This document shows positions 5,007-36,042 of a stretch of 64,000 nucleotides of DNA, piece by piece. The stretch lies in the IMG/VR virus record IMGVR_UViG_3300006143_000275; one strand, written 5' to 3'. How positions within the stretch are numbered: position 1 is the stretch's first letter; every line of letters begins with the position of its first letter. The stretch comes from a virus. Taxonomy: Duplodnaviria; Heunggongvirae; Uroviricota; Caudoviricetes. The translations under genes and the position numbers were made by a program. A model generated the notes under the pieces. That model was not told where the DNA came from. It searched no databases and worked only from the letters and a program-made list of their open reading frames with translations.

Positions 5007-5447
5007 TTATGTATATAGATGGTACTTTTTACTGATAGAGTGCGCTGTCTCATCTGGCAGAGGAGCAAACCAGATGCCGGTAAGAGTCGTCCCATCGTCT
5101 TCCTCTGGCGTCAGTTCTGTCAGACACTTATCATAAATCAGCCCGAACCCCACCCCTTCGACCAGACCAAGTTCCTCTGCAACGGTCTTCGCCTTCAACA
5201 GGTGACTTTTGTTTCTGGCCTCACAGATGGTCTTGACAAACGAGCCACAGACATAATCCTCAAAAATTTCCTTATCCACATGAACGGAGCAAGTAACAAA
5301 ATCCATTCCGTCATGTGTGATTTTTCGCCTGAGAAGATGCGTCCAATAGGCTTCAGCACAATGCGATACCTGTGCAGCCAGCTTGCCTGGAGACATGGCA
5401 AGGTCTTTTCGCATAATAAACAGACGTCTGTATCCCATTGGCTTCAC
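5007..5447 (-). CDS. peptidyl-tRNA hydrolase PTH2-like protein
   Basis: MRKDLAMSPGKLAAQVSHCA matches the PTH2 family GK(I/L)AAQxxHA motif; true start probably the internal Met near 5414. Confidence 0.5.
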   Translation of the reverse strand: MKPMGYRRLFIMRKDLAMSPGKLAAQVSHCAEAYWTHLLRRKITHDGMDFVTCSVHVDKEIFEDYVCGSFVKTICEARNKSHLLKAKTVAEELGLVEGVGFGLIYDKCLTELTPEEDDGTTLTGIWFAPLPDETAHSISKKYHLYT

Positions 5448-8964: not shown

Positions 8965-9294
8965 TCATTCATCTACCTCCTCAAACAAGATACAATCCCG
9001 GACAATTCTGCGTTCCCAACTGAGGTCATCAAATGTTGGCCATCTTTTCCAATCGTACTGATCCGTACAGTCGCCGGTTATGTCATAGATATGGCCATCA
9101 ATCCGGCATCCGAAATGGTTGACAGGAGCATCATAGACGATTGCTACATTAGCATCCCACTCATACTGCTTGAAACGTTCGTATAAAATCTTGGCGAACC
9201 AATAGCACGCTCCGCAAGTGAAGATTTTGATGACCTCCTGATACTTCCCGTCGTTGGTAAAGCGAGAAATAAAAGACAAGACCTTTTGTTCCAT
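8965..9294 (-). CDS. hypothetical protein
   Basis: 109-aa ORF. Confidence 0.3.
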   Translation of the reverse strand: MEQKVLSFISRFTNDGKYQEVIKIFTCGACYWFAKILYERFKQYEWDANVAIVYDAPVNHFGCRIDGHIYDITGDCTDQYDWKRWPTFDDLSWERRIVRDCILFEEVDE

Positions 9295-9776
9295 CAGAAG
9301 TGATAGTCAACAACGCCGCCCAAATAGTACGTCCCCAGCGGCTCTACCGTGCGCATCCACTGCTGCATTGTATACAGTTCATCTTCATTCCACACATAAA
9401 AGCCGAATTGATCACTGTACGATTTTTTCAGGTCGTACATAGCCGAGTCAAGGCCGCAACAGACGGTTGATTTTGCAACAAATTGATTGAAGTCAATTTT
9501 TGACAGAGCATCGACCGCCTTCTTAAACTTCTCAAAATATTCGTCAAAGTAGTCGCCAATATCAATTTTGAATGTGAGCGTATCGCCGTCTCTGGTACAC
9601 ACCCGGCCGAAACTCGTACTCATCAACCATTCAAGTTCTTCATTGCGGTTCTCGTCGCTAACATCGGAAACATAATCAGCGATGGAACCAGTGAACCACT
9701 CTGGAATAGAATCTGCGCAGATGCGGTCTTCTACATCGACTGGCAAGCTCTCAATTTGAAAAATTCTGCTGTGCAT
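9294..9776 (-). CDS. hypothetical protein
   Basis: 160-aa ORF. Confidence 0.3.
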   Translation of the reverse strand: MHSRIFQIESLPVDVEDRICADSIPEWFTGSIADYVSDVSDENRNEELEWLMSTSFGRVCTRDGDTLTFKIDIGDYFDEYFEKFKKAVDALSKIDFNQFVAKSTVCCGLDSAMYDLKKSYSDQFGFYVWNEDELYTMQQWMRTVEPLGTYYLGGVVDYHF

Positions 9777-9780
9777 CGTA

Positions 9781-10701
9781 TCACCCTTGTTTCTTCAGAT
9801 ATTGGAACATTTCTGTAATATCGTTTGTAATATCGTGCCGGATGGAGCAACAGGAATTCTTTGCGAATTTCCCCTCGACAGCGTCGATATACATGGAGGC
9901 GGACGTGAACTCTCCATCCATACCGTCGTCCCCCATGTAGAATTCCTTCCACTGATCCTCCGACATCAGCCGCCTTACATCGAGCTGGCGAATAGCAAGA
10001 TTGTCAAAGCTGACTGCTTTGAAGAAGCCATGTTTCACAGCGTCACCCAATGCGTTATAGAGTGCAACCTTTTTAGCCGCGATGTCTTCGCCGTGCCGCT
10101 CCAAGTTGTCCTCGCCGCGCCGGAAATCTTTATACCCGAGAATCAGAATCTTCAGGTTGTGACCAGCCAGCGACCTGAACCCCTTCATCGAAATCATACC
10201 GTTGATGATGTGAATGACAGCATTGGGGTAATACTTAACCATCTCAATAAAGCTGTCTGTGTCTTCCGTCCAGTCCAGATAGGAGATACCAAGCCCATAA
10301 ATTAACCCATGCTCCGTCAGGTATCGGAGCATGGGAAGATTTTTCATGAAATGCGTTTTGTTAACCGTGATATTGGGAATCAGCTTCCGCTCTTTGAGTT
10401 GCTGTAGAAATGGAATCAAATCTGGATGGGCGAGCGGATTGCCGCCGCCAATAGCAAGCTCAGTATAGGGGCGGATAGAATCCAAGAATGGCAGATGCAG
10501 GATGTCTCCATGTCTGCCATCCGGTCTTGAGTCCTCGTGACACATAGCGCATCCCATATCACACTGGTTTGTGATCTTGATGTCAAACGACTCTGGGAAC
10601 TCAGGCTCAAAGAAATCCAGGTCGTTTTCACGAACCTTCGTTCCGTCGCTATAGATTCTCACACGGTAATTCCCGTTGGTGTACTCGCCTAAAATACTCA
10701 C
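9781..10701 (-). CDS. radical SAM protein, function unknown
   Basis: CxxxCxxC cluster (ITNQCDMGCAMC) followed by a Gly-rich SAM-binding segment (LAIGGGNPL); about 300 aa. Confidence 0.6.
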   Translation of the reverse strand: MSILGEYTNGNYRVRIYSDGTKVRENDLDFFEPEFPESFDIKITNQCDMGCAMCHEDSRPDGRHGDILHLPFLDSIRPYTELAIGGGNPLAHPDLIPFLQQLKERKLIPNITVNKTHFMKNLPMLRYLTEHGLIYGLGISYLDWTEDTDSFIEMVKYYPNAVIHIINGMISMKGFRSLAGHNLKILILGYKDFRRGEDNLERHGEDIAAKKVALYNALGDAVKHGFFKAVSFDNLAIRQLDVRRLMSEDQWKEFYMGDDGMDGEFTSASMYIDAVEGKFAKNSCCSIRHDITNDITEMFQYLKKQG

Positions 10702-10719
10702 GAAGGTTCCTCCCTTATC

Positions 10720-11049
10720 TTATCCGTCTCTCCCGTACTCACCAAACGCGACCATCTTGTCTCCACTCGGCGTAGTGAAGTAGTGGGAGTATGATTCCAT
10801 AGAACCCCAGTCACTGTAACCCAAGTGTCGATGATCCTGATATCGGTATTCCTCAGATTCGAGGAGCAGCTTTGAATACGGAACGAGTTTGCCATCGAAG
10901 CAGTCATACATCAGTTCATCCTGCTTGAATTTCTCGTATTCTTCCTGCGTGCAGATAACGATGCTATGCGTGGAGCTGCTGTTTGTTTCAAACACTCCAC
11001 ATCTTACTTGTCTCATACGCTCTCCTTTTTGATTGCGATTAAAACTCAC
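10720..11049 (-). CDS. FETNSSSTH-motif protein (paralog of 15550-16068)
   Basis: N-terminus MRQVRCGVFETNSSSTHS is nearly identical to the N-terminus of the ORF at 15550-16068. Confidence 0.4.
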   Translation of the reverse strand: MSFNRNQKGERMRQVRCGVFETNSSSTHSIVICTQEEYEKFKQDELMYDCFDGKLVPYSKLLLESEEYRYQDHRHLGYSDWGSMESYSHYFTTPSGDKMVAFGEYGRDG

Positions 11050-11803
11050 ATTTTATAGGCCGCGATGTCACATTCTGAAAGAATGGCATCGGCAGGAGCT
11101 TGTGCAGGTTACGCTCGTTCATGGTCTTGATTTTACTGTCAAGCGAAGGATCTCCTGTTGTACCGACCATGATGTACTTGTCGAGCTGCGCATAGGTAAA
11201 ACCGAGATTGTCCTCGTCACTTTTGCCACACAGGCCGTCAGACGGCGTTTTGTCCACCAGTTCACGCGGAATGGGCAATTCGTACCCGATTTGCAGGACT
11301 TCACTCACCAGGAGACTGGCAAGAGGACTGAAATCTCCCGCACTGTCCCCAAACTTTGTGGAATATCCCACATAATCCTCTGAGCCATTACATGTGTTGG
11401 CTACCCGTCCGCCGTTCGGAAGCGACTGCGCAACCGCATACAGTGTTGCCATGCGGATGCGAGCTGGCAGATTTACCTTCGACTGCTCCGTTACAGGCAT
11501 ATAACCGCGAATTTCCAAAGTCAGACGCTCAATCGCTCCTCCGATATTGATAGTGCAGTGCTCAATGCCAAGCGTCTCCACTACCTTTCGGCTGTCCTTG
11601 ATGTCGTGCTGGACACCATTTGGCATCAAAACACCAAATACGCGGTCTTTGCCGAGCGCCTCAACGCACAGGGCGGCGACAATCGAGCTGTCTTTCCCGC
11701 CAGAAATTCCGACAACCGCACTGCACTCCGGGCCGTTTTCCTGAAAATAATCACGAATCCACTGAACGATTGCGTCTTTTGTGTGTTTTGGGTTTGGAAG
11801 CAT
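11039..11803 (-). CDS. nadE: NH3-dependent NAD+ synthetase
   Basis: PP-loop SGGKDSS; C-terminal PSDGL...DE..LG..Y..LD.Y pattern typical of NadE. Confidence 0.75.
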   Translation of the reverse strand: MLPNPKHTKDAIVQWIRDYFQENGPECSAVVGISGGKDSSIVAALCVEALGKDRVFGVLMPNGVQHDIKDSRKVVETLGIEHCTINIGGAIERLTLEIRGYMPVTEQSKVNLPARIRMATLYAVAQSLPNGGRVANTCNGSEDYVGYSTKFGDSAGDFSPLASLLVSEVLQIGYELPIPRELVDKTPSDGLCGKSDEDNLGFTYAQLDKYIMVGTTGDPSLDSKIKTMNERNLHKLLPMPFFQNVTSRPIKCEF

Positions 11804-11806
11804 AAA

Positions 11807-12249
11807 TTACCCCTCTTTTCTCCATAGTTCTACCGTGTATTGCTGGCCAAGAATCTTCTCAATGATTCCGAACACAACACCCCAGTTGCCTCCACCAAGA
11901 CCACATCCAATCTTGTATGGCATTGCAATCGTCTCGCCAGCAGGAACGATCTGTTTTAATTGGAGTAGACACTTTTCAAAAGCTGCATAGTCTGTGTACT
12001 GCCTTCCGTTATAACCGTACTGGTCTTGAGAAAACAGATTGCAAACAACCTGGGGATCAATATTCTTGCCATCAACAGGTGTGCGCCCTCATCGCACCTG
12101 ACCTTATACCATTTGTAAACTGTGGGGAATTTTGTCCTTATCTGCTTTGCGACGCCGCTTCCCATTTTCCCTTGGCAGTTCACTTGGTGGCAAATATAAT
12201 TTGATTTTGTAGAGAACAGGTCTCCATCAATTATTTTGATAGACATCAA
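11807..12249 (-). pseudogene. macro-domain (ADP-ribose binding/processing) gene split by a frameshift
   Basis: Frame A (11956-12249) gives the macro N-terminus IIDGDLFSTKSNYICHQVNCQGKMGSGVAKQI; frame +2 (11807-12088) gives NIDPQVVCNLF...IAMPYKIGCGLGGGNWGVVFGIIEKIL and ends 4 nt before the nadE start. Confidence 0.5.
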
Positions 12250-13772
12250 AATTCCCCTCCATGGAGATTCTGCCGAACCTCATCCAAGGTATAAATTTTG
12301 ATGAACTCCCCATTCTTGAAGACCACCCGTAATTCATTGTTCTCTTGAGCCTCAGCCCAAGTTAGGCCATCCTTATAGATGTAGTTATCACCGTTTTTGA
12401 TCACACGGCAGCAACCCCGCTGAGACTTCTTGAAGTGACCAGTGTCGGTCTTGGGATTCTTGAAAATCATGATGGGCTTGCCGTCTGCATCCTCGGCATA
12501 GGTGGCCTTAACGGCGATACCAAAGGTGTCACGGGTGTATGGTGCGTATGTCTTATTGACAACAGAGATACCGGAAACGGGATTGGGTTCACTTCGTTCC
12601 AAAGTCTCCAAGCACTGCATGGAGAAGGAACCGACGCCAAGGGAGACATTGTTAATGGCAAACCCGTTGGATTCCAGAATCTGATAGATTTGCTTGCATC
12701 GCTGGGGAGTAATGCTGTCACCATACAACGCCTTGACGTGCGGATTCAGCACTTTGAACCCCTTGCTGTTCACGGTGCCTCCAAAAATGTCCCACAGCTT
12801 GAACGCAGTCTTGGTCACGACCTCGACGGGGTCTCCACTGTCTCCACGGATAAGCAGACATCCATCGTGTGCCAGAATCTCGTCTTTGAGCTGCGGCAGG
12901 ATGTTGTCTACCAGATTCCAGTAATCGTAGCTGTCACTGACCATGGAGAAGTTCTGGTGAGGGTAAATCTCGGTCAGCAGACGGCGGATATGGGTGACCT
13001 CGTCACCGTCCATAGCGAAGTTGGAACACATCACGCTGTGTTCGGTGGACAAAGCGCCATAGGCTACCGGCTCCTTAGCACAGTCGCAGTGATAGTTGTC
13101 CTCCAGCCACAGGATTGCGGGAACAGTGGCGGTGTTCAGGAAGCTGAGACAGAAAGCGGCAGAACTTTTGGTGGCGCTCTCCACGCTCTCTTGACCACGC
13201 ATGGAAAAATCGCCAAGGAGTCTGGCGCGGACCACGCTGTCATCACAGGTGCGATCTGTAAACTCGTTGACGATTTGGCGGTAGCGATAGCCGACCTCGG
13301 CGGAAACTTGGGTGTGCCACATGGTGCAGGACAGCATGGTCTCAATGGAGTTCACCAGCCACACAAAGTTCGGATGGGTGTTGGAAATCTCAATTTGCGG
13401 CACCTTGATATTGGTACGCACACCCTCCGGCACGGCCCGAATCTCTAGGGGAAGATAGCCCAAGTCATGAAGAGCTTTCAGGCGCTTTTCTCCAACACCA
13501 TCGGTGTTGATGGTGGCGTTGAGAACCCGCTTATACTCGCTGAGGACATCCTCCCAGTCCTCTTGGAAGAAAAAGTGGTTGAAGGCATCAACGAGGTACT
13601 CCTTGATGAACGCCTGGAGGCCAAACATCGTGACCTTATCTGTGTCTCCCAGCCGGGTCATGCGGGGAGTGTAGTAGGAGACCATCTTGGTCAGGGTCTG
13701 CGGATACTGCTCTGCGTGGGCCGTCTTGTAAAAGTCCAGGCAAAGCAGTGGATTGTAGCAACAACCACTCAT
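12246..13772 (-). CDS. nadV: nicotinamide phosphoribosyltransferase (NAMPT/NadV)
   Basis: 508 aa; N-terminal LDFYKTAHAEQYPQ matches the NAMPT DSYK(V)THyKQYP signature; length typical. Confidence 0.8.
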   Translation of the reverse strand: MSGCCYNPLLCLDFYKTAHAEQYPQTLTKMVSYYTPRMTRLGDTDKVTMFGLQAFIKEYLVDAFNHFFFQEDWEDVLSEYKRVLNATINTDGVGEKRLKALHDLGYLPLEIRAVPEGVRTNIKVPQIEISNTHPNFVWLVNSIETMLSCTMWHTQVSAEVGYRYRQIVNEFTDRTCDDSVVRARLLGDFSMRGQESVESATKSSAAFCLSFLNTATVPAILWLEDNYHCDCAKEPVAYGALSTEHSVMCSNFAMDGDEVTHIRRLLTEIYPHQNFSMVSDSYDYWNLVDNILPQLKDEILAHDGCLLIRGDSGDPVEVVTKTAFKLWDIFGGTVNSKGFKVLNPHVKALYGDSITPQRCKQIYQILESNGFAINNVSLGVGSFSMQCLETLERSEPNPVSGISVVNKTYAPYTRDTFGIAVKATYAEDADGKPIMIFKNPKTDTGHFKKSQRGCCRVIKNGDNYIYKDGLTWAEAQENNELRVVFKNGEFIKIYTLDEVRQNLHGGEF

Positions 13773-13993
13773 TTCTCATCATCCTCACTTTCAACTTTCT
13801 TTCCCGCATAGTAGATTGCAAATGCAAGAGGAGCCACGATAAACCACAAAGCCATGATCCATATTGGTAGATAGTGCATATCTTCCAGGTCGCTATAGCT
13901 GTTCTTTTTATACATCAGGTAGTAGTAAAAACCGCCAAGAGAAGAACCAATCAGAATGTAAGTGATAACAATTAAAACGATTAGAAACAGCAT
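13769..13993 (-). CDS. small membrane protein
   Basis: 74 aa with two hydrophobic helices. Confidence 0.3.
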   Translation of the reverse strand: MLFLIVLIVITYILIGSSLGGFYYYLMYKKNSYSDLEDMHYLPIWIMALWFIVAPLAFAIYYAGKKVESEDDEK

Positions 13994-13995
13994 AT

Positions 13996-14163
13996 TGTCA
14001 CCTCAATAGTGAATTTTCTGGACATAACCACACTTTTTGCAACGGTATATTTCTGTGTATCCAATAGGCATATCCTGTGGAGCCCACTCAGAATAGTTGG
14101 TTACTCTCGTGATATGTTCCCACTCATGTTTGCAAAACAGCGAGCGGATATAGTTGATAAGCC
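13996..14163 (-). CDS. small Zn-ribbon protein (55 aa, not in the ORF track)
   Basis: ATG preceded by AGGAGGTG; MRWLINYIRSLFCKHEWEH...CKKCGYVQKIHY. Confidence 0.25.
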
Positions 14164-14186
14164 ATCTCATCGCGCACCTCCTATGA

Positions 14187-14987
14187 CTACTCTAATACAG
14201 CCACTTTCTCATGTTCACCACGATAGATGCTGTTTGTTGTAAATACTCGTGAAATCTGGCCATCTGTCAACACGGAGCCCTTGAAGATGGTGCTCTCACA
14301 ATGGGACACATACAGAAAAATTTCCTTTGCACCAGCTTCTTTCAGGGCAGCAGCAGTATGGGTAAACGTACCGCCACGGGAGCAAATGTCGTCCACAATA
14401 AGAACATTTCGACCGGCGACCTTCTCACTGTTGGCGAGTTCAAGCCCTTCAATTTTGCCAGTGCGCCAGTCACGGTGCTTGATACCGAACACATACTCCC
14501 GGCCCATCAGGTCGGAGTACCGCTTGGCAGCGCCCTCGTCCGGGTAGCACATCAGAACATCAGTATCGCCTGTATCAGCCATGACACGCTCAATAGCCAG
14601 ACGGATATTGTCCGCAGGCTCCTTCACGCAGATGCGGTCGATAAGCGCTGCCGCCACATTGGAATGTGGATCAAGCACTTCAACCTTACGAAAGTTGAGA
14701 GTGTTAATGAACTCGGCGAACCATTTCAGGGTGAACACCTCGTCGCCGCTCTTGACCCTGTCCATACGAGCATTGGGAATGTACGGCAAAACGAGCTCAA
14801 TATCCACACCCATCCGATTGTTCGCCCGAATGTGATGCACCAAATGCCACAGGAGCATACACTCGTGGTCGCCATCATACCGCCACTCAATACGGAACCA
14901 GACAGCGTCTTTGGTATCAAGGCGGAAGGATGTGGTCCCGTCTGGGAACTGCGTAAAGTTAACAGGGGTTCTGTTCACCAGAATCAT
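14187..14987 (-). CDS. prs: ribose-phosphate pyrophosphokinase (PRPP synthetase)
   Basis: PRPP-binding loop VLIVDDICSRGGTFTHTAAALKEAGA; about 266 aa. Confidence 0.75.
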   Translation of the reverse strand: MILVNRTPVNFTQFPDGTTSFRLDTKDAVWFRIEWRYDGDHECMLLWHLVHHIRANNRMGVDIELVLPYIPNARMDRVKSGDEVFTLKWFAEFINTLNFRKVEVLDPHSNVAAALIDRICVKEPADNIRLAIERVMADTGDTDVLMCYPDEGAAKRYSDLMGREYVFGIKHRDWRTGKIEGLELANSEKVAGRNVLIVDDICSRGGTFTHTAAALKEAGAKEIFLYVSHCESTIFKGSVLTDGQISRVFTTNSIYRGEHEKVAVLE

Positions 14988-14990
14988 GTC

Positions 14991-15539
14991 TTACTCCTCC
15001 CAGTTCTCAATGTTGATTTGACACATCTTCATGGCCTTGAGGGCATTTTCGTGGCTCTCTGGTGTCACGCCAGCGCAGCAAGCGGCATCCACCGTAATTT
15101 TGACTTCCGGCAAAAACGCTTTAAGCAGCAGCGCGTTGGAAATGACACAGATATCGGTGCAGAGGCCGACCAGGACAATCTCGTCAATATGGCTCGACAC
15201 GCTGTTTTTAATGCGCAGGTACTCGCCAAGTTCAATAGAGCCAAACGTTTTCTTTCTGAAAGTAGAAGTCCACTCCTCCTTGTCTACGATTGCATTGAAA
15301 AGCACATCAGGGGCGCACCAGCCCTCGGTCTTATCAATGCAGTGCTCAACGGGGAGCATCTTCCCTTCCTGCGTCTCCAGATAGTCCTTATCGTGGGTAT
15401 CAAAGGTTGCAAGGATCTCGCCGTCAAACTCTTCGGCTTTCGCAACAACCTTCGGCAGAATCGCCTGCGCCTCTTTGGTGCCAAGAGACCCATCAATGAA
15501 ATCGTTTTGCATATCAACAATGACCAATACCTTACTCAT
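14991..15539 (-). CDS. pncA: nicotinamidase / isochorismatase-family hydrolase
   Basis: VLVIVDMQNDF signature; start taken at the internal MSKVLVIV. Confidence 0.7.
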   Translation of the reverse strand: MSKVLVIVDMQNDFIDGSLGTKEAQAILPKVVAKAEEFDGEILATFDTHDKDYLETQEGKMLPVEHCIDKTEGWCAPDVLFNAIVDKEEWTSTFRKKTFGSIELGEYLRIKNSVSSHIDEIVLVGLCTDICVISNALLLKAFLPEVKITVDAACCAGVTPESHENALKAMKMCQINIENWEE

Positions 15540-15549
15540 ATGTACCTCC

Positions 15550-16068
15550 TTAGTTCCCCTTGTAGTAAAATTCGTGCCGGTAATCGACATGGAAATTTTC
15601 CACGCGATCATCGTCAATTTCATCACTTGTTGTTAAAACAACGCTTTTATCGGAGAATAAATAACGGAGCAGCCGCCCGCTGCTCCGAAGTATTCCGTCC
15701 ACGAACCTCAGATGATCGTCCTCACCAGCATGATCGACAAAAGCATTAACGCAATAAACGCCGCTTCCATATCTGTGATAGGTGGCCTTTTCAAACTCAC
15801 ATTGAACACCAACTTTCATCAGTTCTTCCATAATCCATGTCTTTGCGTTCTCTGCCTTTTTCATTTCATAAAGCGACAGGATACTGGAGTATAAATACGC
15901 AGCCTTATCCTCGACTGACCGCAGTTCAGCAGGCTCTCGGCCAAAATCGTCACATCGAAAATACACCTTTTCTGGATATTCTAGTTCAGCCTTCCTGTCC
16001 GTCACAATACAAATACAGTGGGTGCTGCTGGAATTGGTCTCAAACACCGAATTTCGTACTTGCCGCAT
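15550..16068 (-). CDS. FETNSSSTH-motif protein (paralog of 10720-11049)
   Basis: MRQVRNSVFETNSSSTH N-terminus; the listed ORF is over-extended upstream, start taken at M63. Confidence 0.4.
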   Translation of the reverse strand: MRQVRNSVFETNSSSTHCICIVTDRKAELEYPEKVYFRCDDFGREPAELRSVEDKAAYLYSSILSLYEMKKAENAKTWIMEELMKVGVQCEFEKATYHRYGSGVYCVNAFVDHAGEDDHLRFVDGILRSSGRLLRYLFSDKSVVLTTSDEIDDDRVENFHVDYRHEFYYKGN

Positions 16069-16241
16069 TGGTTTTCTCCTTAAACTGATATGTTGTTCGT
16101 TCTGTAATCCGTCATTACAGATGTCCAGGTGAGATGTGACTGGACATCTGAATGATGCCAAAGGACTCGCGAGCGGCGCGACTTCGTCGGCGTCAGCCGA
16201 CCTCGTCGCGCTCGCGCAGCGAGGAAACAAACAAATCCATA

Positions 16242-16266
16242 CTCCGATTAACAATACGGAGTGCCC
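16242..16266. repeat. conserved hairpin motif copy E (CTCCG-ATTAACAATA-CGGAG-TGCCC)
   Basis: Stem changed by compensatory substitutions relative to copies A-D. Confidence 0.5.
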
Positions 16267-16355
16267 GCTTTATGTATTGATTGGTTATAACAGGCGATAT
16301 ACATTACAGAACTGTCGGAATTTTCTTTTTGCAGCCTTGAAGAAGTGACGCCGAT

Positions 16356-16403
16356 GATCCAAGATCCGGGAGGATCGCCCGCGATCCGTACGGATCTTTG
16401 ATC
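16356..16403. promoter_or_regulatory. cluster of six GATC sites with 10-bp periodicity inside nested palindromes
   Basis: TGATCCAAGATCCGGGAGGATCGCCCGCGATCCGTACGGATCTTTGATCA. Confidence 0.4.
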
Positions 16404-16438
16404 ATTCGGAGGAACTTCTTTGAGCGTGTGAACGGTTA

Positions 16439-16474
16439 CCCTTGCGTTTCTCTGATTCACAATACAGAGTGCCC
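16439..16474. repeat. conserved hairpin motif copy D
   Basis: CCTTGCGTTTCTCTGATTCACAATACAGAGTGCCC. Confidence 0.5.
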
Positions 16475-16515
16475 TATGTACGCAGACTGTGGGCTAATAC
16501 GCTGCAAAATGATTA

Positions 16516-17130
16516 TTACTCCTGGAACCTGTAGTCAACTCTCTCCCAGTTCCCAGGTCTTAGATATGTGATATAGATTTTGTCAAACGCCCAAGAACCG
16601 ACATCTCCCATGCCAGCCTCTCCGCGATAATCTCCGCCTCCCATGCCATTCCCGATGCAAGTGAGAAGCGGAAGCGGGTTGATACACCACACGCCAGACA
16701 TCCCGTATCTGTCGCGGACGGAGTTCCGCCTTATGTATTCCTCTATGTCGATGTAGCACTTTTTCGTTGCATTCACCAGATAGCACCCGGCGCTGTCGAG
16801 ATCGAGCTTATATTGTGGCGTTTCCGGTGAGATATCCTGAACGCTTCTGTATTCACCCCACACGCCGTTATACTTTTCAAGGAAGGCTTCAACACTTGTG
16901 ATATATCCATCACCAAAGTTGCATCCATCCTCCACTGCATCGGTGGCATAGTCTCCCATCCATGCGATACGGGCCGGTCTGTCCTCGATTTCATGCAGCA
17001 CCGCGTTAACAAAGTTATTGCCGATCCATGAGTGCTCCATCAGCTTGAGCCCATTGTCAAATGCGTGAGAATACGCAGACCGTTCCTCTCCGTCTTCAAA
17101 AATCATCAGCGGTCTATAATACTGTCCCAT
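16516..17130 (-). CDS. hypothetical protein
   Basis: 204-aa ORF. Confidence 0.3.
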   Translation of the reverse strand: MGQYYRPLMIFEDGEERSAYSHAFDNGLKLMEHSWIGNNFVNAVLHEIEDRPARIAWMGDYATDAVEDGCNFGDGYITSVEAFLEKYNGVWGEYRSVQDISPETPQYKLDLDSAGCYLVNATKKCYIDIEEYIRRNSVRDRYGMSGVWCINPLPLLTCIGNGMGGGDYRGEAGMGDVGSWAFDKIYITYLRPGNWERVDYRFQE

Positions 17131-17570
17131 CAGCTCGCCCTCCCAAGCACAGCTATAAAGCTGTCCGTTTCAATATCCTCCTCGATGTCAGCAGGCGCAA
17201 ACCAGTCGTCGGCATCTTCATCGGTGTCTTCTTCAATATCGTCTTCGACATTTTCTTCTTCTTCATCCCACGCTTCGTTTTCGTCCATATGCCGGAGGAC
17301 TTCGTTCTTGTAGTCGTCAAATGAATAATCTGCGTCCTCATATCCGCCATATCCATCCTCGCGGTAGTAATCGCAACGAGTCGGAATGTTCGCCAGAAGG
17401 CCACGGATTTCTTCCCAGTCACGCATATTGCCGATTGTTTCCAGCAGGATTTCATTGAGGTATTCTGCATCATAAACATCGTTGCAGAGATCATCAATTC
17501 CCTCATCAACACAGAAACTGATTAGGTCGCCGAATGAGTTTACACCTTCGATAAATTCCTGACGTGTCAT
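17130..17570 (-). CDS. highly acidic small protein with a conserved C-terminal tail (DSFIAVLGRAS)
   Basis: 146 aa, D/E-rich; C-terminus matches the tail shared by six other small ORFs. Confidence 0.4.
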   Translation of the reverse strand: MTRQEFIEGVNSFGDLISFCVDEGIDDLCNDVYDAEYLNEILLETIGNMRDWEEIRGLLANIPTRCDYYREDGYGGYEDADYSFDDYKNEVLRHMDENEAWDEEEENVEDDIEEDTDEDADDWFAPADIEEDIETDSFIAVLGRAS

Positions 17571-17594: not shown

Positions 17595-17669
17595 TGGTGA
17601 CCCGGACGGGAGTCGAACCCGCGTTACCAGAGTGAAGGTCTGGTGTCTTAACCGCTTGACTACCGGGCC
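17595..17669 (-). tRNA. tRNA-Glu (anticodon TTC)
   Basis: Cloverleaf read by eye; T-loop GGTTCGACTCC; encoded CCA. Confidence 0.6.
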
Positions 17670-17672
17670 GTA

Positions 17673-17748
17673 TGGTCTGAGTGGGGAGGATCGAACTCCC
17701 GGCCTCGTGATCCCAAATCACGCGCTCTGCCAACTGAGCTACACCCAG
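17673..17748 (-). tRNA. tRNA-Pro (anticodon TGG)
   Basis: Anticodon loop TTTGGGA; T-arm GGGAGTTCGATCCTCCC; CCA. Confidence 0.6.
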
Positions 17749-17752
17749 ATAT

Positions 17753-17919
17753 TGTGCGGGCGGGGATTTTCACCCCGCATAGGTAAGATTATGTACCTGC
17801 TACCGAGCTTGTCGCCCATCGGCTACTTCACCGAACCCAAACAGGAGGACAACGATGGACTCGAACCATTGTCTTACCCTACCTCTCGTTATAGCGTCTA
17901 CCTATTCCGCCACCGCACA
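17753..17919 (-). ncRNA. atypical tRNA-like element, about 167 nt, with a tRNA-Leu-type D-arm and a large internal insertion
   Basis: 5' TGTGCGG pairs perfectly with 3' CCGCACA; D-arm GTGGCGGAATAGGTAGACGC matches tRNA-Leu; internal T-arm-like GGACAACGATGGACTCGAACCATTGTC; no clean anticodon arm. Confidence 0.3.
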
Positions 17920-17935
17920 TTTTGTATTGTGTAGC

Positions 17936-17970
17936 TCTAAAAACAGGACTCCCGCAGGCGAGCGTCCCTG
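17936..17970 (-). terminator. rho-independent terminator (minus strand)
   Basis: Hairpin CAGGGACGCTCGCCTGCGGGAGTCCTG followed by TTTTT on the minus strand. Confidence 0.45.
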
Positions 17971-18039
17971 TAAACCTGCTACACTCGGTTTTGAGCGTGC
18001 CCATCCCGCAGGGCGGCGGGGTGCTCCGTGTACTTTGGA

Positions 18040-18073
18040 GCAAAGAAAAAGATCGTGCCGAGAACTACGGCAC
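18040..18073 (-). terminator. rho-independent terminator after tRNA-Gly (minus strand)
   Basis: Hairpin GTGCCGTAGTTCTCGGCAC then TCTTTTTCTTTG on the minus strand. Confidence 0.5.
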
Positions 18074-18075
18074 GC

Positions 18076-18151
18076 TGGAGTGAGAGACGGGACTTGAACC
18101 CGCAGCTTCCGACTTGGAAGGACGGCACTCTGCCAGTTGAGTTACTCCCAC
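18076..18151 (-). tRNA. tRNA-Gly (anticodon TCC)
   Basis: Anticodon loop CTTCCAA; T-arm GCGGGTTCAAGTCCCGT; CCA. Confidence 0.55.
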
Positions 18152-18154
18152 AGA

Positions 18155-18574
18155 TGGTGGAGCCGGCGGGAATCGAACCCGCGTCCGAAATTCCTACATG
18201 AGCAAGACCTTTTTACGCAATAGGTTTCCTTTTAGGTGGATGCCTTATGGCGGGGCACCAAGATGGAATCCAAATCTACCCCAGGGCGTACCAGTTAAGT
18301 ACACCTCCACCACCTTGTCTTTTTGAACAGATTACAAGGAAAACTGTTTTTCTGGCGTATCCTCGACCGCAGGTACTTACCCAGCCAGAGGTGTACCGTT
18401 TTGGAATCCTGCCGACAGTTAAGCGGCGACCCTCTCTGCCATGAAGGCGGCGAAAGCGGGATGGATCATAACAACACTCATATCATTGTCATTTCATTTT
18501 TTGTTTAGCCTTAAGGCGGTCTCTACCTGCGAATCTTACTCTCTCAGAACCCCGTCGAAACCTTTACGGCCCCG
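18155..18574 (-). ncRNA. ssrA: tmRNA (ssrA)
   Basis: 5' end GGGGCCGTAAAGGTTTCGACGGGG matches the tmRNA 5' consensus GGGGCUGAUUCUGGAUUCGACGGG; 3' end GGACGCGGGTTCGATTCCCGCCGGCTCCACCA matches the tmRNA tRNA-like 3' end; the termini pair as an acceptor stem; about 420 nt; internal short ORF ending VAA-TAA. Confidence 0.6.
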
Positions 18575-18677
18575 TAAAAGAGGCCCGGCGTATAGCCGGG
18601 CCGTTCCCCACATTGTTATAGACCGCATGGGTGCGCTGTCTTATTAAATACCATGTTTGCACGTTCCCCTTTCGGGG

Positions 18678-18753
18678 TGGAGCTGGTAACAGGAGTCGAA
18701 CCCGCGACACTCGGAGTACAAAACCGATGCTCTACCAACTGAGCTATACCAGC
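18678..18753 (-). tRNA. tRNA-Thr (anticodon TGT)
   Basis: D-arm GCTCAGTTGGTAGAGC; anticodon loop TTTGTAC; CCA. Confidence 0.55.
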
Positions 18754-18756
18754 AAA

Positions 18757-18832
18757 TGGAGCTGATGCACGGACTCGAACCGCGAACCTAAGCTTTACGA
18801 AAGCCTCGCTCTGCCATTAGAGCTACATCAGC
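18757..18832 (-). tRNA. tRNA-Thr (anticodon CGT)
   Basis: Anticodon stem AGGCT/AGCTT with loop TTCGTAA; T-arm CGCGGTTCGAGTCCGTG; CCA. Confidence 0.55.
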
Positions 18833-18836
18833 ATGT

Positions 18837-18911
18837 TGGCTGGGGTGACTGGATTCGAACCAGCGAATGAGGGAGTCAAAGTCCCTTGCCTTGCCGCTTG
18901 GCGACACCCCA
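18837..18911 (-). tRNA. tRNA-Gln (anticodon TTG)
   Basis: 5' U, 3-bp D-stem, anticodon loop CTTTGAC; CCA. Confidence 0.55.
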
Positions 18912-21643: not shown

Positions 21644-22783
21644 TTATGCGGCCAAATCCTCATGGATGGTACGCATTACGTCCGTTTGATATTTTTCGTT
21701 GTTGTACTTGATGACCTCGTCAACATACTTTTCTTCAACCATCCGGTAGTAGTTGATAAGGCCGCGCAAAACCTGAACATCGTGCAGTTCCCAGACAATT
21801 CCGTTCTTACGGTCGAGGATGTAGTTGCTGATCATTGCACGAAAACGCTGCTTGTTCTTGTGACCGATGGTGATCTCATTGTCCTTATTGAGCATGAGCC
21901 CGAGGTTCCAATTACTGCCGGCTCTGGAACCATACCTCGTCTTCTCATCCTTGATCTTGAACGGCGCATGGAAATCATCCAGCGTCTGATTGATGAAGTC
22001 GATGACCTTATTGTAGTCAAACTCTCTCCGGCTTGAAATTAGAGAGTCGTCTGCGTATCTGGTGTAAACGAACGACTGCCCGTTAAAATCACGCAGGGTA
22101 TTGTATACCTTGTGATCAAGGGGGATCATCATCAGATTTGTGAGCATCGGAGAAATCGGCGTGCCCTGCGGCAATCCGCCATGAAGAAAACAGAGGTTGA
22201 GTGCCTTGTCCAGTGCTGCTCTGCCCCGTTCTGACTTGACAATCTCGCTGAACGGGAAAATCAAAGAGAGCGAATACCGAAGGAATACCAGCGTTGTGTC
22301 CCCAAAAAAGTTCGAGAAATCCGTCTTTAAGAACCAATGACTGTCATTCCTCTGGTGACGTTTGATGGCGTCAATGGTGGAACGATTCTTAACATAGGCA
22401 AAGGCGGAGGTGTGGTACAGCGCAAACATCTTGGTCTCAAACAAAGTCTTCAGATTCCGAAGCGCCGTCATCAGTTCTGGCACAGGGGCATTGATCTCAC
22501 GCAGGCCGCCGGACTTCTTCGGAATATGGAATGTGGTATAGAGGGCTTCTCTCGGAACGGCATACAGCTCGGCATTTTGTTCGCAAAAACTCTCCAGAGC
22601 GGAGACCATACCGGCGAAATCGAACCGATCCAGAAACTGTGGCTTGAGTCGCTGTGCGAAATGCGTTCTGGTATTGGTGCTGTTTGAAGTTATCATAGAC
22701 TGCATGTTGACCTCACCAGATATGATTTCCTCAAATGATATCTGATGGTATGCAGGCGATTGCATGACGGTTATGTATGGCAT
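21644..22783 (-). CDS. reverse transcriptase (retron / group II-like RT domain, standalone)
   Basis: RT motifs YTTFHIPKKSGGLREINAP, GLPQGTPISPMLTNLMM and YTRYADDSLIS (YxDD box); 379 aa; no maturase/endonuclease or RNase H extension. Confidence 0.8.
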   Translation of the reverse strand: MPYITVMQSPAYHQISFEEIISGEVNMQSMITSNSTNTRTHFAQRLKPQFLDRFDFAGMVSALESFCEQNAELYAVPREALYTTFHIPKKSGGLREINAPVPELMTALRNLKTLFETKMFALYHTSAFAYVKNRSTIDAIKRHQRNDSHWFLKTDFSNFFGDTTLVFLRYSLSLIFPFSEIVKSERGRAALDKALNLCFLHGGLPQGTPISPMLTNLMMIPLDHKVYNTLRDFNGQSFVYTRYADDSLISSRREFDYNKVIDFINQTLDDFHAPFKIKDEKTRYGSRAGSNWNLGLMLNKDNEITIGHKNKQRFRAMISNYILDRKNGIVWELHDVQVLRGLINYYRMVEEKYVDEVIKYNNEKYQTDVMRTIHEDLAA

Positions 22784-23227: not shown

Positions 23228-23899
23228 TTACACGGCGATCACGTCGAATTCAAAAGCATCCACAAGAATCATCTTGCGGAGTTTCTCGCCCTTCACGAAG
23301 TTGATGAAGTTGGCTACGCCGTAGGCAACGATCGTTCGCACCGTCGGAACAACCGACAGTGTGATATTGCAGGCAGAAACGGGCGTCGCCTCTTTTGCCT
23401 CATCATGAGAGAACGCCATGCTGTCGATAAAGTTCTCCACCATCTTCTTGTCGCTCCAGTCAGCGGCATAGTGCTGGGCGTCCGTCAGCCGCATCCGGAA
23501 GTCGAACATCCCCTTGACGAACGTGTTCTCCTTACAGGAGGTGGCGATCTCCCGGCGGAGGTCAATGTTGTCCACCGCCAGGAACACATAACCGGAGAGA
23601 CGCTGGCCTGTCCAGCCCTCTTTGACCAGCTTCAGATCGGGGGCGCAGTCCGGATTGATCTCGGTGAGATACTCAGCCAAAGCATCAACCTTGGCCTTGC
23701 CGATATCCGTATTCCGGAACATCTGGTTGGCAATGTTGTGGGCTTCTACGGTATCGAAGTCATACAGCGTGATTTTCGTAATGCCGAACCGCACCAGATT
23801 CTCAGCGACCGTGGAACCAATCGCTCCACAGCCGATGATATGAATCCGCGATTCGAGCATATCCGGCTTGAAGAATTCGTAGGACTTCGCCAAATCCAT
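23228..23899 (-). CDS. ThiF/MoeB-family E1-like adenylyltransferase
   Basis: Rossmann IHIIGCGAIGSTVAENLVRFGITKITLYDFDTVE; 223 aa. Confidence 0.7.
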   Translation of the reverse strand: MDLAKSYEFFKPDMLESRIHIIGCGAIGSTVAENLVRFGITKITLYDFDTVEAHNIANQMFRNTDIGKAKVDALAEYLTEINPDCAPDLKLVKEGWTGQRLSGYVFLAVDNIDLRREIATSCKENTFVKGMFDFRMRLTDAQHYAADWSDKKMVENFIDSMAFSHDEAKEATPVSACNITLSVVPTVRTIVAYGVANFINFVKGEKLRKMILVDAFEFDVIAV

Positions 23900-28836: not shown

Positions 28837-28922
28837 TGGTGTCGATGATGGGATTTGAACCCATACGGCGTTAGAGCCAACAGGGTTTGAGCCTGTCATG
28901 TCTACTATTCCATCACATCGAC
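28837..28922 (-). tRNA. tRNA-Leu (anticodon CAA), type II
   Basis: Anticodon loop CTCAAAC; long variable arm; T-arm ATGGGTTCAAATCCCAT; CCA. Confidence 0.5.
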
Positions 28923-28925
28923 ATA

Positions 28926-29012
28926 TGGTGTGGGCGGCGGGAATTGAACCCGCACATCGAACCCGATATAGAGGCTTAAACTCCATGTGTCTTCCAATTC
29001 CACCACGCCCAC
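28926..29012 (-). tRNA. tRNA-Leu (anticodon TAA), type II
   Basis: Anticodon loop TTTAAGC; variable arm with ATCG/CGAT stem; T-arm GCGGGTTCAATTCCCGC; CCA. Confidence 0.5.
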
Positions 29013-29590: not shown

Positions 29591-30391
29591 TTATCTCCAG
29601 TTCGTACCAATCCGACCGTCTGGGTGGATTATGATATTGGAGTATCCGGCTCCATAGTCATTCTGGCGTTGCTGCCACATATCTCCAAGTGTTACGCGGG
29701 CGTGCTTTCCATCGTAGTCAAAGGTCGCATAGACAAAGAAGTCACCGATTCTGAATGTATGTATATCAATTTCTTCGTCCTCTTGCAGAGCATTCCAGAT
29801 ATCTACCGGGTAATCCTTCTTCTCAAGCCTGCTAAGAAACCGGAACGAAAAGCTGTCGGCATCTATCTTCATGTAATCTTTGATTGATGAGAGAGACGGA
29901 CTTTCCATCACTGTTTGGACTGTGCAACCAGGAAACCGGGCCGGATTTGCATGGACGAACTCATTGTGGGACAGGTTGATATGAGCCAACCCACTCAGGT
30001 CTGCGTTGAAACCAGCAGTATTGATAGAGCAAAAAACATTGTTGCTATTACACCTGTATGTCTCAGCGATATTCGCAATCTGCTCTGGATAAAGTCCTGG
30101 TTCTCCACCTGTTATGGTAAGTCTGGCATCTGGATGCTCGCCAAGTACCATTTTCAGAGCCTCGATTTGGGCAGGGAAATTATTGTCGCCCGTCATGGGG
30201 TTTTGCCGCTCCAAACAGAACGGGCAGTTAAAGGGGCACTCTTCCGTTGTAATCAACTGGACATTGATACGGTAGTACAGAGGTCGGCCAAGGGACGTTT
30301 CCGCCTTCCTGCTCTGTAATCTATACCTCAGGTCATCCCGCATCTCAGTCCTTATGTCTTCGTAGGAACCAATAAATGGAATTCTGTTCAT
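29591..30391 (-). CDS. radical SAM protein (paralog class of 9781-10701)
   Basis: CPFNCPFC cluster and TITGGEPGL SAM-binding motif; start taken at the internal MNRIPFIG. Confidence 0.55.
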   Translation of the reverse strand: MNRIPFIGSYEDIRTEMRDDLRYRLQSRKAETSLGRPLYYRINVQLITTEECPFNCPFCLERQNPMTGDNNFPAQIEALKMVLGEHPDARLTITGGEPGLYPEQIANIAETYRCNSNNVFCSINTAGFNADLSGLAHINLSHNEFVHANPARFPGCTVQTVMESPSLSSIKDYMKIDADSFSFRFLSRLEKKDYPVDIWNALQEDEEIDIHTFRIGDFFVYATFDYDGKHARVTLGDMWQQRQNDYGAGYSNIIIHPDGRIGTNWR

Positions 30392-30593
30392 TTTGCTACT
30401 CACTCGCGCCAACCTCCTTCGCATCAAAGAACTATTTGATTGCTGTAACGATAATGAAAAGTATGACTATCGCCAAACACCAGAAGCCTTGTTTTTGGTA
30501 GAGTTTGCGGCAACAAGAACGTTCCTCGACATACCGTTCCCATGCCAAATCAGATACGAAATCTTCTCGTTTCATTCAAGACGCTCCTCTCTC

Positions 30594-31267: not shown

Positions 31268-31343
31268 TGGTGGAGATAGTCGGGATCGAACCGGCGACCT
31301 CCTGCTTGCAAGGCAGGCGCTCTCCCATCTGAGCTATATCCCC
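31268..31343 (-). tRNA. tRNA-Ala (anticodon TGC)
   Basis: GGGGATATAGCTCAGATGGGAGAGCGCCTGCCTTGCAAGCAGGAGGTCGCCGGTTCGATCCCGACTATCTCCACCA. Confidence 0.6.
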
Positions 31344-31348
31344 ATATT

Positions 31349-31434
31349 AGAGAGTGGTGGGAATCGAACCCACGCAGCGCATATCCGGTTGACAGGCATG
31401 TATCTGCCCCGCTCTGCCACTGAGCTACACTCTC
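31349..31434 (-). tRNA. tRNA of uncertain identity (about 86 nt) with an apparently 8-nt anticodon loop and a long variable region
   Basis: Canonical acceptor, D-arm (GCTCAGTGGCAGAGC) and T-arm (GTGGGTTCGATTCCCAC); best anticodon stem GGCAG/CTGTC encloses ATACATGC; no encoded CCA. Confidence 0.35.
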
Positions 31435-31493: not shown

Positions 31494-32423
31494 TTAGTCG
31501 ATCCCGTCAACACCGACAATAGTGCCGCCAGACGAATTAACCTTGGGGAGAACACCGTTCCACTGCTCATACTTGATCTTTTCAATCAGCTCGGGCGTGA
31601 GAGACTGTGCAATCTGCTGGTTAGCCGCCGCCTCTGCTTCTGCGGCGATCCGAACCACCTCTGCAGCTGCATTGGCCTCAATGATTTCCGTCTCTGCCTG
31701 AATTTCGGCAGCCTCTTTTTCCTTCTGAGCCTGAATCAGAGCAACCTCGCGCTCTTTCTCCGCCTGTACCTTGGCTGTCTGAGCCTCGATATTGGCCAGC
31801 TCCAGCTCCTGCTGGGCGGTAACCTTTTTCTGAATGGCCGCAGCAGTTTCAGCATCAACAGAAATATCGGTGAAGTTCACGGTGTCAATGATGATGCCGT
31901 ACACATCAAATTTCTGTCGCAGGTAGGTATCCAACTCCGCATTGATAGCAGTACGCTTATCACCGAAGATGTCGGTAACGGGATAATTAGCGGAAACCTC
32001 CTGCGTCCAGGCGATGACCTTGGGCTTGATGAATGTGTCCTTGATAGTCTCGCCGGACTTGCCCTTGAATGTGACGAACGTCTGCGCCACACGTGCCTCG
32101 TCAAACCGGTAGGAGAACTCAAGGTTCACACGTACGGTCTTTCCATCGGACGTTGGGATACTGAAACTCTCGTCGTCCTTGGAGTCACCCTTGTCCTCAG
32201 CGGTCAGATAGGACTGCTCAATGCCGATGGAGTATGTAGTGACCTTCTTTGTGGGAGAGACCAGATGCCAGCCCTGGGTCAGAATCTCTCCGTCAACGCC
32301 GCCGTTCATGTTGTAAACCACCCCAACATAGCCGGCAGGCACACGCTCCAGACAGATAACGGCACCAATCAGGCCAAGGATCAGGGCAAGTGCCAGAAGC
32401 AGCGCACCAATTTTACCTTTCAT
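31494..32423 (-). CDS. SPFH/band-7 (stomatin/prohibitin-like) membrane protein
   Basis: N-terminal TM, SPFH core, Ala/Glu-rich coiled-coil tail; start at MKGKIGALLL. Confidence 0.65.
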   Translation of the reverse strand: MKGKIGALLLALALILGLIGAVICLERVPAGYVGVVYNMNGGVDGEILTQGWHLVSPTKKVTTYSIGIEQSYLTAEDKGDSKDDESFSIPTSDGKTVRVNLEFSYRFDEARVAQTFVTFKGKSGETIKDTFIKPKVIAWTQEVSANYPVTDIFGDKRTAINAELDTYLRQKFDVYGIIIDTVNFTDISVDAETAAAIQKKVTAQQELELANIEAQTAKVQAEKEREVALIQAQKEKEAAEIQAETEIIEANAAAEVVRIAAEAEAAANQQIAQSLTPELIEKIKYEQWNGVLPKVNSSGGTIVGVDGID

Positions 32424-35793: not shown

Positions 35794-36042
35794 AAGCCGT
35801 CCGGAAATTCTGGACGGCGACCCACGCTACTGAGGTTTCTTATTTCGTAAGTGTGCGTGTAGCTTAGTCCGTATCAATTCATAAACTAAACTATCGGATT
35901 TTCCCGACTTTCTACCCACTGCTGGGTCATCCCCTCAGACCAAGGAATGGGGACGCCTCCCAATCCCTTCCGTATCTCGGTACTCTTTTCACGATACGGT
36001 ATGCCGCGTAAAGCCCGTCGCGGTCAGCTTTGCCATGTGGTT

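Follow-up and report, generated by a model that had tools for sequence, protein, structure and literature searches.

The stretch of DNA considered here, 64,000 nucleotides of IMG/VR virus record IMGVR_UViG_3300006143_000275 (Caudoviricetes) and hereafter called the window, carries on its minus strand a run of closely packed genes of NAD+ metabolism between 11039 and 15626. The window is phage DNA, as its large terminase gene (50443-52272), its 12 tRNAs and its relatives among IMG/VR contigs, most of them ~50-300 kb long, demonstrate; HU, a RuvC-like gene and a transfer-messenger RNA (tmRNA) are further phage marks. A preliminary description of this DNA, made from the sequence alone, had read the run as a phage NAD+ reconstitution module of five adjacent minus-strand genes encoding a nicotinamidase (PncA), a phosphoribosyl pyrophosphate (PRPP) synthetase (Prs), a nicotinamide phosphoribosyltransferase (NAMPT or NadV), a macro domain and an NAD synthetase (NadE). 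As a module it holds up, and annotation with hidden Markov models (HMMs) from Pfam, PHROGs and NCBIfam matched all five labels at the family level. The common strand and the extent are also borne out, with three corrections: two small open reading frames (ORFs) intervene, the macro gene is frameshifted, and PncA most likely starts at 15542. We read the cluster, with moderate confidence, as a NARP1-family NAD+ cassette of a gut phage that would operate through the nicotinate/deamido-NAD branch. Its features are as follows.

14991-15542, minus strand: PncA-like protein of the isochorismatase fold, putative nicotinamidase (PF00857; the ORF reaches 15626)
14187-14987, minus strand: Adps-like protein of the Prs fold, probable ADP-ribose pyrophosphokinase (phrog_619)
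14003-14170, minus strand: 55-residue ORF, zinc-ribbon-like, CxxC...CxxC (phrog_3036, function unassigned)
13769-13993, minus strand: 74-residue membrane ORF, no assigned function
12246-13772, minus strand: NAMPT-like transferase, putatively Namat-derived (PF04095 and PF18127, phrog_448)
11807-12246, minus strand: macro-domain gene, Adpp-like, frameshifted (phrog_335)
11039-11803, minus strand: NadE, putative NH3-dependent NAD+ synthetase in a short single-domain form (PF02540, TIGR00552)

The same gene set is found again in more than 100 independent viral contigs, so the arrangement is not due to chance. Relatives were found at the protein level; a megablast search of positions 9000-17500 against 50,697 phage records gave no match. 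Near relatives of the transferase come from human faecal viromes and from metagenome-assembled genomes that bear the labels Clostridia, Oscillospiraceae and Lachnospiraceae, and the host is for that reason likely to belong to the gut Clostridia. The same five-gene cassette is present in Phass-1 (OQ749652.1, 96860-101298; our locus L001), a TAG-recoded ('code 15') gut phage, in whose record three genes are labelled 'nicotinamidase', 'ribose-phosphate pyrophosphokinase' and 'nicotinamide phosphoribosyltransferase', and the macro and NadE genes are labelled hypothetical proteins. The stretch from the Prs-like gene to the NAMPT-like gene, both on the minus strand, contains the two small ORFs. The 55-residue ORF has a homologue only in the closest relative, L003, and the 74-residue ORF is conserved at 82% in L003 and weakly in L004 and L005; both are probably passengers outside the pathway. 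A promoter and terminator scan of 10400-16600 gave nothing clearly above shuffled sequence, with no intergenic terminator within the cassette.

A pair of paralogues of phrog_28997, without assigned function, directly flanks the cassette (10720-11049 and 15550-16068, both minus strand). Both begin MRQVR..VFETNSSSTH, and neither was detected at 1e-4 in loci L001-L026 (Phass-1, MT835544 and loci selected for NadE). They may indicate a boundary of recombination or of mobility.

Phage operons annotated as Prs plus Nampt are NARP1, in which Adps makes ADP-ribose pyrophosphate (ADPR-PP) from ADP-ribose (ADPR) and ATP and no PRPP, and Namat joins nicotinamide to ADPR-PP to give NAD+, independently of the host enzymes PncC and NadR, which use nicotinamide mononucleotide (NMN) (Osterman et al. 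2024, bioRxiv 10.1101/2024.02.11.579819). Structures are available for Namat (9W5X/9W5W; PMC12774641) and for Adps (PMC13586617). The Prs-like protein of the window matches phrog_619 (7.7e-72) and falls below every curated Prs cutoff (TIGR01251, 99.8 vs 113; PF14572 and PF13793 also below). Its identity to phage homologues of Adps is 36-40%, with E values of 1e-42 to 1e-50, against 1.8e-12 for the best cellular Prs, and the search returned 1540 phage records at no more than 40% identity, among them ICP1, BASEL, Kayvirus and Listeria A511-type phages. The defining signature of Adps is the loss of the C-terminal alpha11-alpha12 module, and the hairpin lysine and a remodelled PP loop are also Adps features (PMC13586617). 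When these published criteria were applied to our own alignment with ICP1-type and other phage Adps proteins and E. coli Prs, the window protein was found to lack the module and to have both the K.RD..TG.I hairpin with the catalytic lysine and a DDIC PP-loop. The solved Adps structures of the same study were not among its PDB sequence matches. With these hallmarks and the failed Prs cutoffs, the protein is probably an Adps, an ADP-ribose pyrophosphokinase, and the earlier suggestion that a Prs supplies PRPP here is probably wrong.

The NAMPT-like transferase matches phrog_448 at 1e-156, with PF04095 and PF18127 both present. Among solved structures it is closest to the Namat of SPbetaL1 (PDB 9W5X/9W5W, 4e-120), to which it is ~40% identical over most of its length, followed by the Nampt of Xanthomonas (Xcc; 7YQO, 1.6e-52) and human NAMPT (~1e-42). 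The catalytic core is kept (D13, Y15, F189, R192, H245, R309 and D311). From these similarities the protein appears to stand on the Namat side rather than the Nampt side, and the claim that a NadV makes NMN at this locus is probably mistaken. SPbetaL1 Namat holds nicotinamide by means of Phe189, Arg192, Asp215, Ala242, Arg306, Asp13' and Tyr15', with Asp215 providing the hydrogen bond; of the mutants listed for the equivalent human residue, Asp219, which sets the substrate specificity, D219S has a switched affinity and D219A is inactive. The pocket positions of the window protein are fixed by its ~40% identity to the solved homologue. In the window protein, Asp215 is replaced by Ala and Ala242 by Ser, and four other pocket positions are changed as well, to Gly187 (canonical His), Phe207 (His), Asn213 (Gly) and Leu241 (Pro). 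Ala or Ser occupies position 215 in all 22 cassette homologues selected for NadE and in all 79 variant loci described below, whereas every canonical homologue keeps an acidic residue there (Asp or Glu). Judged by eye, the pocket of the variant shifts toward the motifs of PncB, with GTS in place of GTD and a hydroxyl side chain at the third position ahead of the catalytic His. An hhalign comparison of Namat with a small PncB alignment aligned the C-terminal half only, at 9.9% probability, and did not cover the pocket region.

The best 120 transferase homologues are all 77-90% identical and uninformative on diversity, and co-variation was therefore followed in an alignment of the 150 nearest cluster representatives at 50% identity together with 13 reference sequences. 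Positions 215 and 242 co-vary in it, with 101 D/A, 34 A/S and 19 S/S sequences and eight rarer or gapped combinations. Among the representatives, the 34 with the highest scores are all A/S or S/S (together written [A/S]S) except for three pocket variants or fragments (A/G, V/S and N/gap). In a neighbour-joining tree built without the six pocket columns, a single split parts all 49 [A/S]S sequences from all 102 D/A sequences; by this tree the [A/S]S transferases form a monophyletic, single old subfamily, which counts at least 49 clusters when grouped at 50% identity. The adenine selectivity clamp of Namat (SCL Arg40; SCH Phe392 and Tyr396) is partly preserved in the window protein: Arg40 and F383 (equivalent to Phe392) are kept, and the Tyr396 region is broken by a 21-residue insertion after F383. 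The clamp aromatic F392 is thereby retained as 'GSF', against 'GGG' in Nampt, and the transferase of Phass-1 retains the full clamp.

Many of the transferase homologues reach 800-1100 residues through large insertions (P0258, P0161, P0124, P0146 and others). P0258 has an intein-like insert right before the catalytic EHS motif, and P0161 has an HNH/AP2 endonuclease segment in an N-terminal extension ahead of the transferase domain.

The PncA-like protein matches PF00857 at 9.4e-21, and its best solved relative is the pyrazinamidase/nicotinamidase of P. horikoshii (1ILW, 3.3e-11). In the alignment with 1ILW six positions are all conserved, which we take to be the Asp/Lys/Cys triad and the Asp-x-His...His metal site. 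The NCBIfam equivalog score of 32.3 lies below the cutoff of 174, so the protein is a divergent member of the family. As a 211-residue ORF with a GTG start at 15626 it would overlap the upstream gene; its homologues begin at the ATG at 15542, which is most likely the true start.

Between PncA and Adps, many variant cassettes carry a conserved gene of ~116 residues without assigned function (5082-5429 in L008, with equivalents in L009, L015, L016, L019, L026, L072 and L076). Its domain forms the N-terminus of an ORF for a PncB-type nicotinate phosphoribosyltransferase (NAPRTase) in L018 (10809-12344), and it may be a further component of the pathway.

NadE matches PF02540 at 5.7e-52 and TIGR00552 at 174.7 bits (cutoff 63.65), and its PP-loop motif SGGKDS is present (GISGGKDSS). 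Its best PDB matches are an archaeal NadE (2E18, 5e-35) and the NMN synthetase of Francisella (3FIU, 2e-34). A use of the Francisella type, from nicotinate mononucleotide (NaMN) to NMN, was considered and rejected; it would still require an NMN adenylyltransferase (NMNAT) and would leave PncA without a point.

The macro domain was described earlier as embedded between nadV and nadE; the position is right, and the gene is not intact. The ORF at 11956-12249 encodes just the N-terminal ~58 native residues of the macro protein, and the C-terminal half (…PYKIGCGLGGGNW…WRKEG, with the GCGLGGG loop) continues in another frame to a stop at 11809-11807. The frames part at ~12071-12072, where two extra bases lie between TTG and GGC; the site was placed by protein alignment of both frames with intact homologues, the DNA alignment being too diverged. 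As read, the gene is a pseudogene in this genome, and the frameshift could be an assembly error. The N-terminal fragment matches phrog_335 'phosphatase' at 1.2e-18, and the conceptually repaired protein matches the macro domains of DarG, TARG1 and Poa1p (6LFQ, 1.6e-5) and also detects the macro genes of canonical NARP1 loci. The gene is in frame in L036, L040, L045 and L049 and missing from the closest relative (L003/L037). By these similarities it appears to correspond to the published accessory protein Adpp, an ADPR-1''-phosphate phosphatase that is found in 15% of NARP1 operons and lets NARP1 beat the aRES defence (NARP1-AP, bioRxiv 10.64898/2026.01.28.702374).

Linkage among these genes was counted in two sets of loci. 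A variant set of 80 loci was pulled by transferase similarity with a mixed alignment, without selection on NadE or PncA, and contains 79 loci of the variant type; a canonical set of 80 loci was pulled with a canonical-only alignment (78 D/A and 2 E/A). At the 79 [A/S]S loci NadE is present 78 times, PncA 74 times, Adps 77 times and a macro gene 41 times (52%). The 80 canonical loci have neither NadE nor PncA (0 each), with Adps at 78 and a macro gene at 14 (17.5%), and the lone canonical locus in the variant set consists of Adps and Namat only. Most variant cassettes missing a gene sit at contig ends, and at least four gene orders occur. Nine NARP1 or NARP2 loci of cultured phages (Bacillus, Staphylococcus, Vibrio ICP1, Mycobacterium, BASEL, Felixounavirus, Pseudomonas and crAss-like phages and a T4-like NARP2 Nampt) are all D/A or E/A and have neither PncA nor NadE. 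In the 50,697 INPHARED records, Namat/Nampt-like genes occur in 2043, NadE-like genes in 44 and PncA-like genes in 8.

Gene fusions bring the same partners together. In L122 (6001-8598), an 865-residue protein fuses an S/S-type transferase to NadE, with PncA immediately upstream and a 510-residue Prs-like gene two genes further up, past an RNA ligase; its contig, which two samples contain, encodes exactly this protein. That a recoded stop codon had been read through was considered as a source of this fusion and rejected, given the exact translation and the absence of W or Q at the junction. In L025 (9521-10741) a macro domain is fused in frame to NadE (406 residues). Three other IMG/VR contigs among those selected for NadE, L020, L021 and L022 (3300028832_000157, 3300021387_000529 and 3300021255_004488), have PncA and NadE without Adps or the transferase; less than 10 kb away each encodes a NAPRTase of the PncB type and an adenylyltransferase resembling NadD, which would make up a complete Preiss-Handler set. 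Since a NadD-like gene lies near only 1 of ~100 cassette loci, Adps with the variant transferase and PncB with NadD are nearly mutually exclusive partners of PncA and NadE.

The preliminary description had noted the lack of a recognisable NMNAT, and this is confirmed for the 64 kb analysed. A Pfam scan of the concatenated ORFs of the 64-kb window gave no match to PF01467 in any ORF of at least 60 residues, and tblastn, a small HMM and the GxFxPxHxGH motif turned up no NadD or NMNAT, either in the window or in Phass-1, whose genome of 135,976 bp is complete (the tblastn queries, from which the HMM was also built, were E. coli NadD and three phage NadD-like proteins). The window likewise contains neither a PncB-type NAPRTase (NAPRTase_N domain) nor NadD, and the whole-window Pfam scan revealed none of the NARP3 families (PnuC-like transporter, NadR-like enzyme). 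The cassette therefore differs, as was also said, from the pairing of NadV with NMNAT known as NARP2, its transferase being linked to Adps instead.

The scheme that we propose for the cassette would start from the products of immunity. Immune NADases would split NAD+ into ADPR and nicotinamide, PncA would convert the nicotinamide to nicotinate and NH3, and Adps would convert the ADPR, with ATP, to ADPR-PP and AMP. The variant transferase would then join nicotinate to ADPR-PP, giving deamido-NAD (NaAD) and PPi, and NadE would turn NaAD, with ATP and NH3, into NAD+. In relatives with an intact macro gene, Adpp would feed the pathway by turning ADPR-1''-P into ADPR. No NMNAT would be needed, since the cassette would be of the NARP1 type. 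Each enzymatic step, the nicotinate specificity and the role in counter-defence are predictions from sequence, and they build on the gene families, catalytic residues, pocket substitutions, strict linkage, fusions and complementary distribution with PncB and NadD that were observed at these loci; the linear scheme is the simplest that gives every conserved gene a role. ADPR-PP is kept as the donor because the linkage of the transferase to Adps equals that of canonical NARP1 (77/79 vs 78/80), and because the 'GSF' clamp Phe is retained, macro genes are enriched and the fusion would join consecutive steps. A route through nicotinate and deamido-NAD, rather than through host NadD, is preferred because PncA and NadE are strictly tied to the transferase in which the Asp is replaced. 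The suggestion of a different wiring that leans on the host NadD can thus be kept in its first part and not in its second, the Asp-replaced transferase pointing to the deamido-NAD route. More broadly, it is slightly better than an even chance that the cassette represents an undescribed monophyletic branch of NARP1, abundant in gut viromes, in which a 'nicotinate ADP-ribose transferase' and Adps replace PncB and NadD.

Several points weigh against this interpretation. The route costs one ATP more than NARP1, and its advantage can only be speculated upon: the Clostridial hosts might salvage through nicotinate and deamidate nicotinamide rapidly, charged nicotinate might stay in the cell whereas nicotinamide diffuses out, or the abundant ammonia of the gut might suit an NH3-dependent NadE. 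The use of ADPR-PP is not certain because the adenine clamp is partly altered, an insertion of 9-24 residues replacing the Tyr396 region in most members and Arg40 not being conserved across the subfamily. The equation of Asp215 and Ala242 with the Ser and Thr of PncB (GTD/ATEH to GTS/GTQAH) rests on the alignment by eye, since hhalign missed the region, and similarity to 2E18 and 3FIU is so nearly equal that by itself it leaves NaAD and NaMN undecided as the substrate of NadE. The subfamily has a single origin, so the perfect linkage reflects one evolutionary event kept over time, and many of the IMG/VR loci are near-duplicates in a redundant metagenomic set. The macro gene, finally, is broken in this very genome, and in L018 a bona fide NAPRTase of the PncB type accompanies an Adps-like gene, NadE and PncA, a combination that fits a PRPP route at least equally well.

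Such a PRPP route through host NadD is the main rival, and we consider it unlikely. It would be a phage-boosted Preiss-Handler pathway, with PncA, PRPP from the Prs-like protein, NaMN from the transferase, host NadD and phage NadE, and amounts to the idea of the earlier note with nicotinate replacing nicotinamide. Besides L018 and the insertion in the clamp region, it can draw on the pocket substitutions, which favour nicotinate and are silent on the ribosyl donor, and on SPbetaL1 Namat, which can use PRPP in the absence of ADPR-PP; with no phage NMNAT present, host NadD would be available for it. The Adps hallmarks and failed Prs cutoffs speak otherwise, and published Adps gave no product in an assay of Prs activity. 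NARP2, which uses PRPP, consists of Nampt and Nmnat without a Prs-like gene (at one NARP2-type locus, L033, no Adps or Prs homologue lies in the 3-kb flanks), whereas 77/79 cassettes retain Adps. Phages that run the Preiss-Handler pathway bring their own PncB and NadD, and the cassettes are without both. On a PRPP route the transferase-NadE fusion would join non-consecutive steps, and a macro protein of the ADPR-1''P-phosphatase type, present in 52% of the cassettes and once fused to NadE, would have no role.

The cassette might instead be an ordinary NARP1 or NARP1-AP that uses nicotinamide, with PncA and NadE as an independent add-on that sends surplus nicotinamide through host PncB and NadD and with neutral changes in the pocket. 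NARP1 in its canonical form is well established, the transferase has an intact catalytic core, His245 included, and gut jumbo phages carry mixed NAD genes including pncA and nadE; yet PncA and the transferase would then compete for nicotinamide, and the amide-binding Asp, whose human counterpart is inactive as D219A, is exchanged in every member, as are five further positions of the pocket. NadE and PncA occur at 0/80 loci of the D/A type and at 78/79 and 74/79 of the [A/S]S type, and the transferase-NadE fusion speaks against independent pathways, which makes this reading improbable in our view. We give as little credence to general auxiliary metabolism, under which the cassette, by whatever wiring, would raise NAD+ for replication in NAD-poor gut hosts. 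A metagenomic survey in which KEGG annotation showed gut jumbo phages to carry pncA, nadE and NAMPT reads the NAD genes of gut phages as metabolic boosters. Homologous NARP1 operons, on the other hand, experimentally defeat SIR2-HerA, Thoeris, DSR1/2 and SEFIR, the ADPR-1''P phosphatase accessory is directed at one particular defence, aRES, and ADPR as a substrate fits a metabolic role poorly.

Set beside the known systems, the cassette under the nicotinate/deamido-NAD reading shares with NARP1 a phage-borne, Adps-clade Prs-like gene linked to a Namat-clade transferase without NMNAT, and a transferase with a conserved catalytic core and part of the adenine clamp. Unlike NARP1, it has Ala for Asp215 (Ser in other members), Ser for Ala242, four more pocket changes and an insertion in the clamp helix, it is tied to a nicotinamidase and an NAD synthetase (0/80 canonical loci), and the predicted product of its transferase is NaAD, not NAD+. 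Like NARP1-AP it has a macro gene of the DarG/TARG1/Poa1p type inside the operon, homologous to the macro genes of canonical NARP1 loci; the differences are that this gene is frameshifted in the window, that it occurs in 52% of variant cassettes vs ~15-17% of canonical ones and that it is fused to NadE in one relative. With NARP2 (Nampt and NMNAT, as in Vibrio phage KVP40) it has in common the end product and the use of a type II phosphoribosyltransferase from the Nampt superfamily, but no NMNAT is present in the window or the complete related genome, and the transferase has 'GSF' rather than 'GGG' and is linked to Adps. With the Preiss-Handler pathway (PncA, PncB, NadD and NadE), of which phage copies exist in L020-L022 and in Kuafu-type jumbo phages (PMC11662467), it shares PncA, NadE and the logic of nicotinate to NaAD to NAD+; PncB and NadD are replaced by Adps and the Namat-derived transferase, and the predicted ribosyl donor is not PRPP but ADPR-PP regained from NAD+ that has been cleaved. 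In the literature searched, outside which subscription-only and very recent papers lie, no paper pairs NARP1 with a nicotinamidase or ADPR-PP with NaAD, and the supplements of the NARP1-AP preprint do not mention NAD synthase or isochorismatase (bioRxiv 10.64898/2026.01.28.702374). Since none of this literature describes it, the cassette is taken as a so far undescribed variant of NARP1.

Other features of the window lie outside the cassette. The tmRNA (18155-18573, minus strand; tag peptide AVEDTPEKQFSL) sits within a tRNA cluster, and tRNAs are located at 17595-18911, 28837-29012, 31268-31434, 36042-36116 and 49061-49134; the ARAGORN call at 31349-31434 has a four-base anticodon, 'acat', with no amino acid assigned. 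A reverse transcriptase (21644-22783, minus strand; PF00078, 1.5e-16) lies in the early/accessory region. The segment 199-4454 (minus strand) holds unusual phage cargo, namely a 531-residue protein whose C-terminus is an OmpA domain, a PspA/IM30-like protein and the inner-membrane permease of an ABC transporter (PF00528). Five further accessory genes, all on the minus strand (23228-23899, 5007-5447, 9781-10701, 29591-30427 and 31494-32492), comprise a ThiF/E1-like enzyme, a PTH2 peptidyl-tRNA hydrolase, two radical-SAM proteins and an SPFH/Band-7 protein.

Depletion of NAD+ is among the commonest antiviral strategies of bacteria, and three phage pathways that rebuild NAD+ (NARP1, NARP2 and NARP3), along with a single accessory enzyme, have become known since 2024. 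If the proposed scheme is true, the cassette would represent a fourth logic, in which the ADP-ribose released by an immune NADase is recycled onto nicotinate and not onto nicotinamide, and it would rely on an enzyme reaction not yet known, the conversion of nicotinate and ADPR-PP to NaAD. It would also explain why pncA and nadE stand beside 'prs' and 'nadV' in hundreds of gut-phage genomes. For annotation, the corresponding rule would be that a phage pair of Prs-like and NadV-like genes denotes NARP1, and that a Namat with Ala or Ser at 215 and Ser at 242, accompanied by PncA and NadE, denotes the deamido variant. The base specificity of these transferases would then come down to a one-residue hypothesis, open to mutagenesis.

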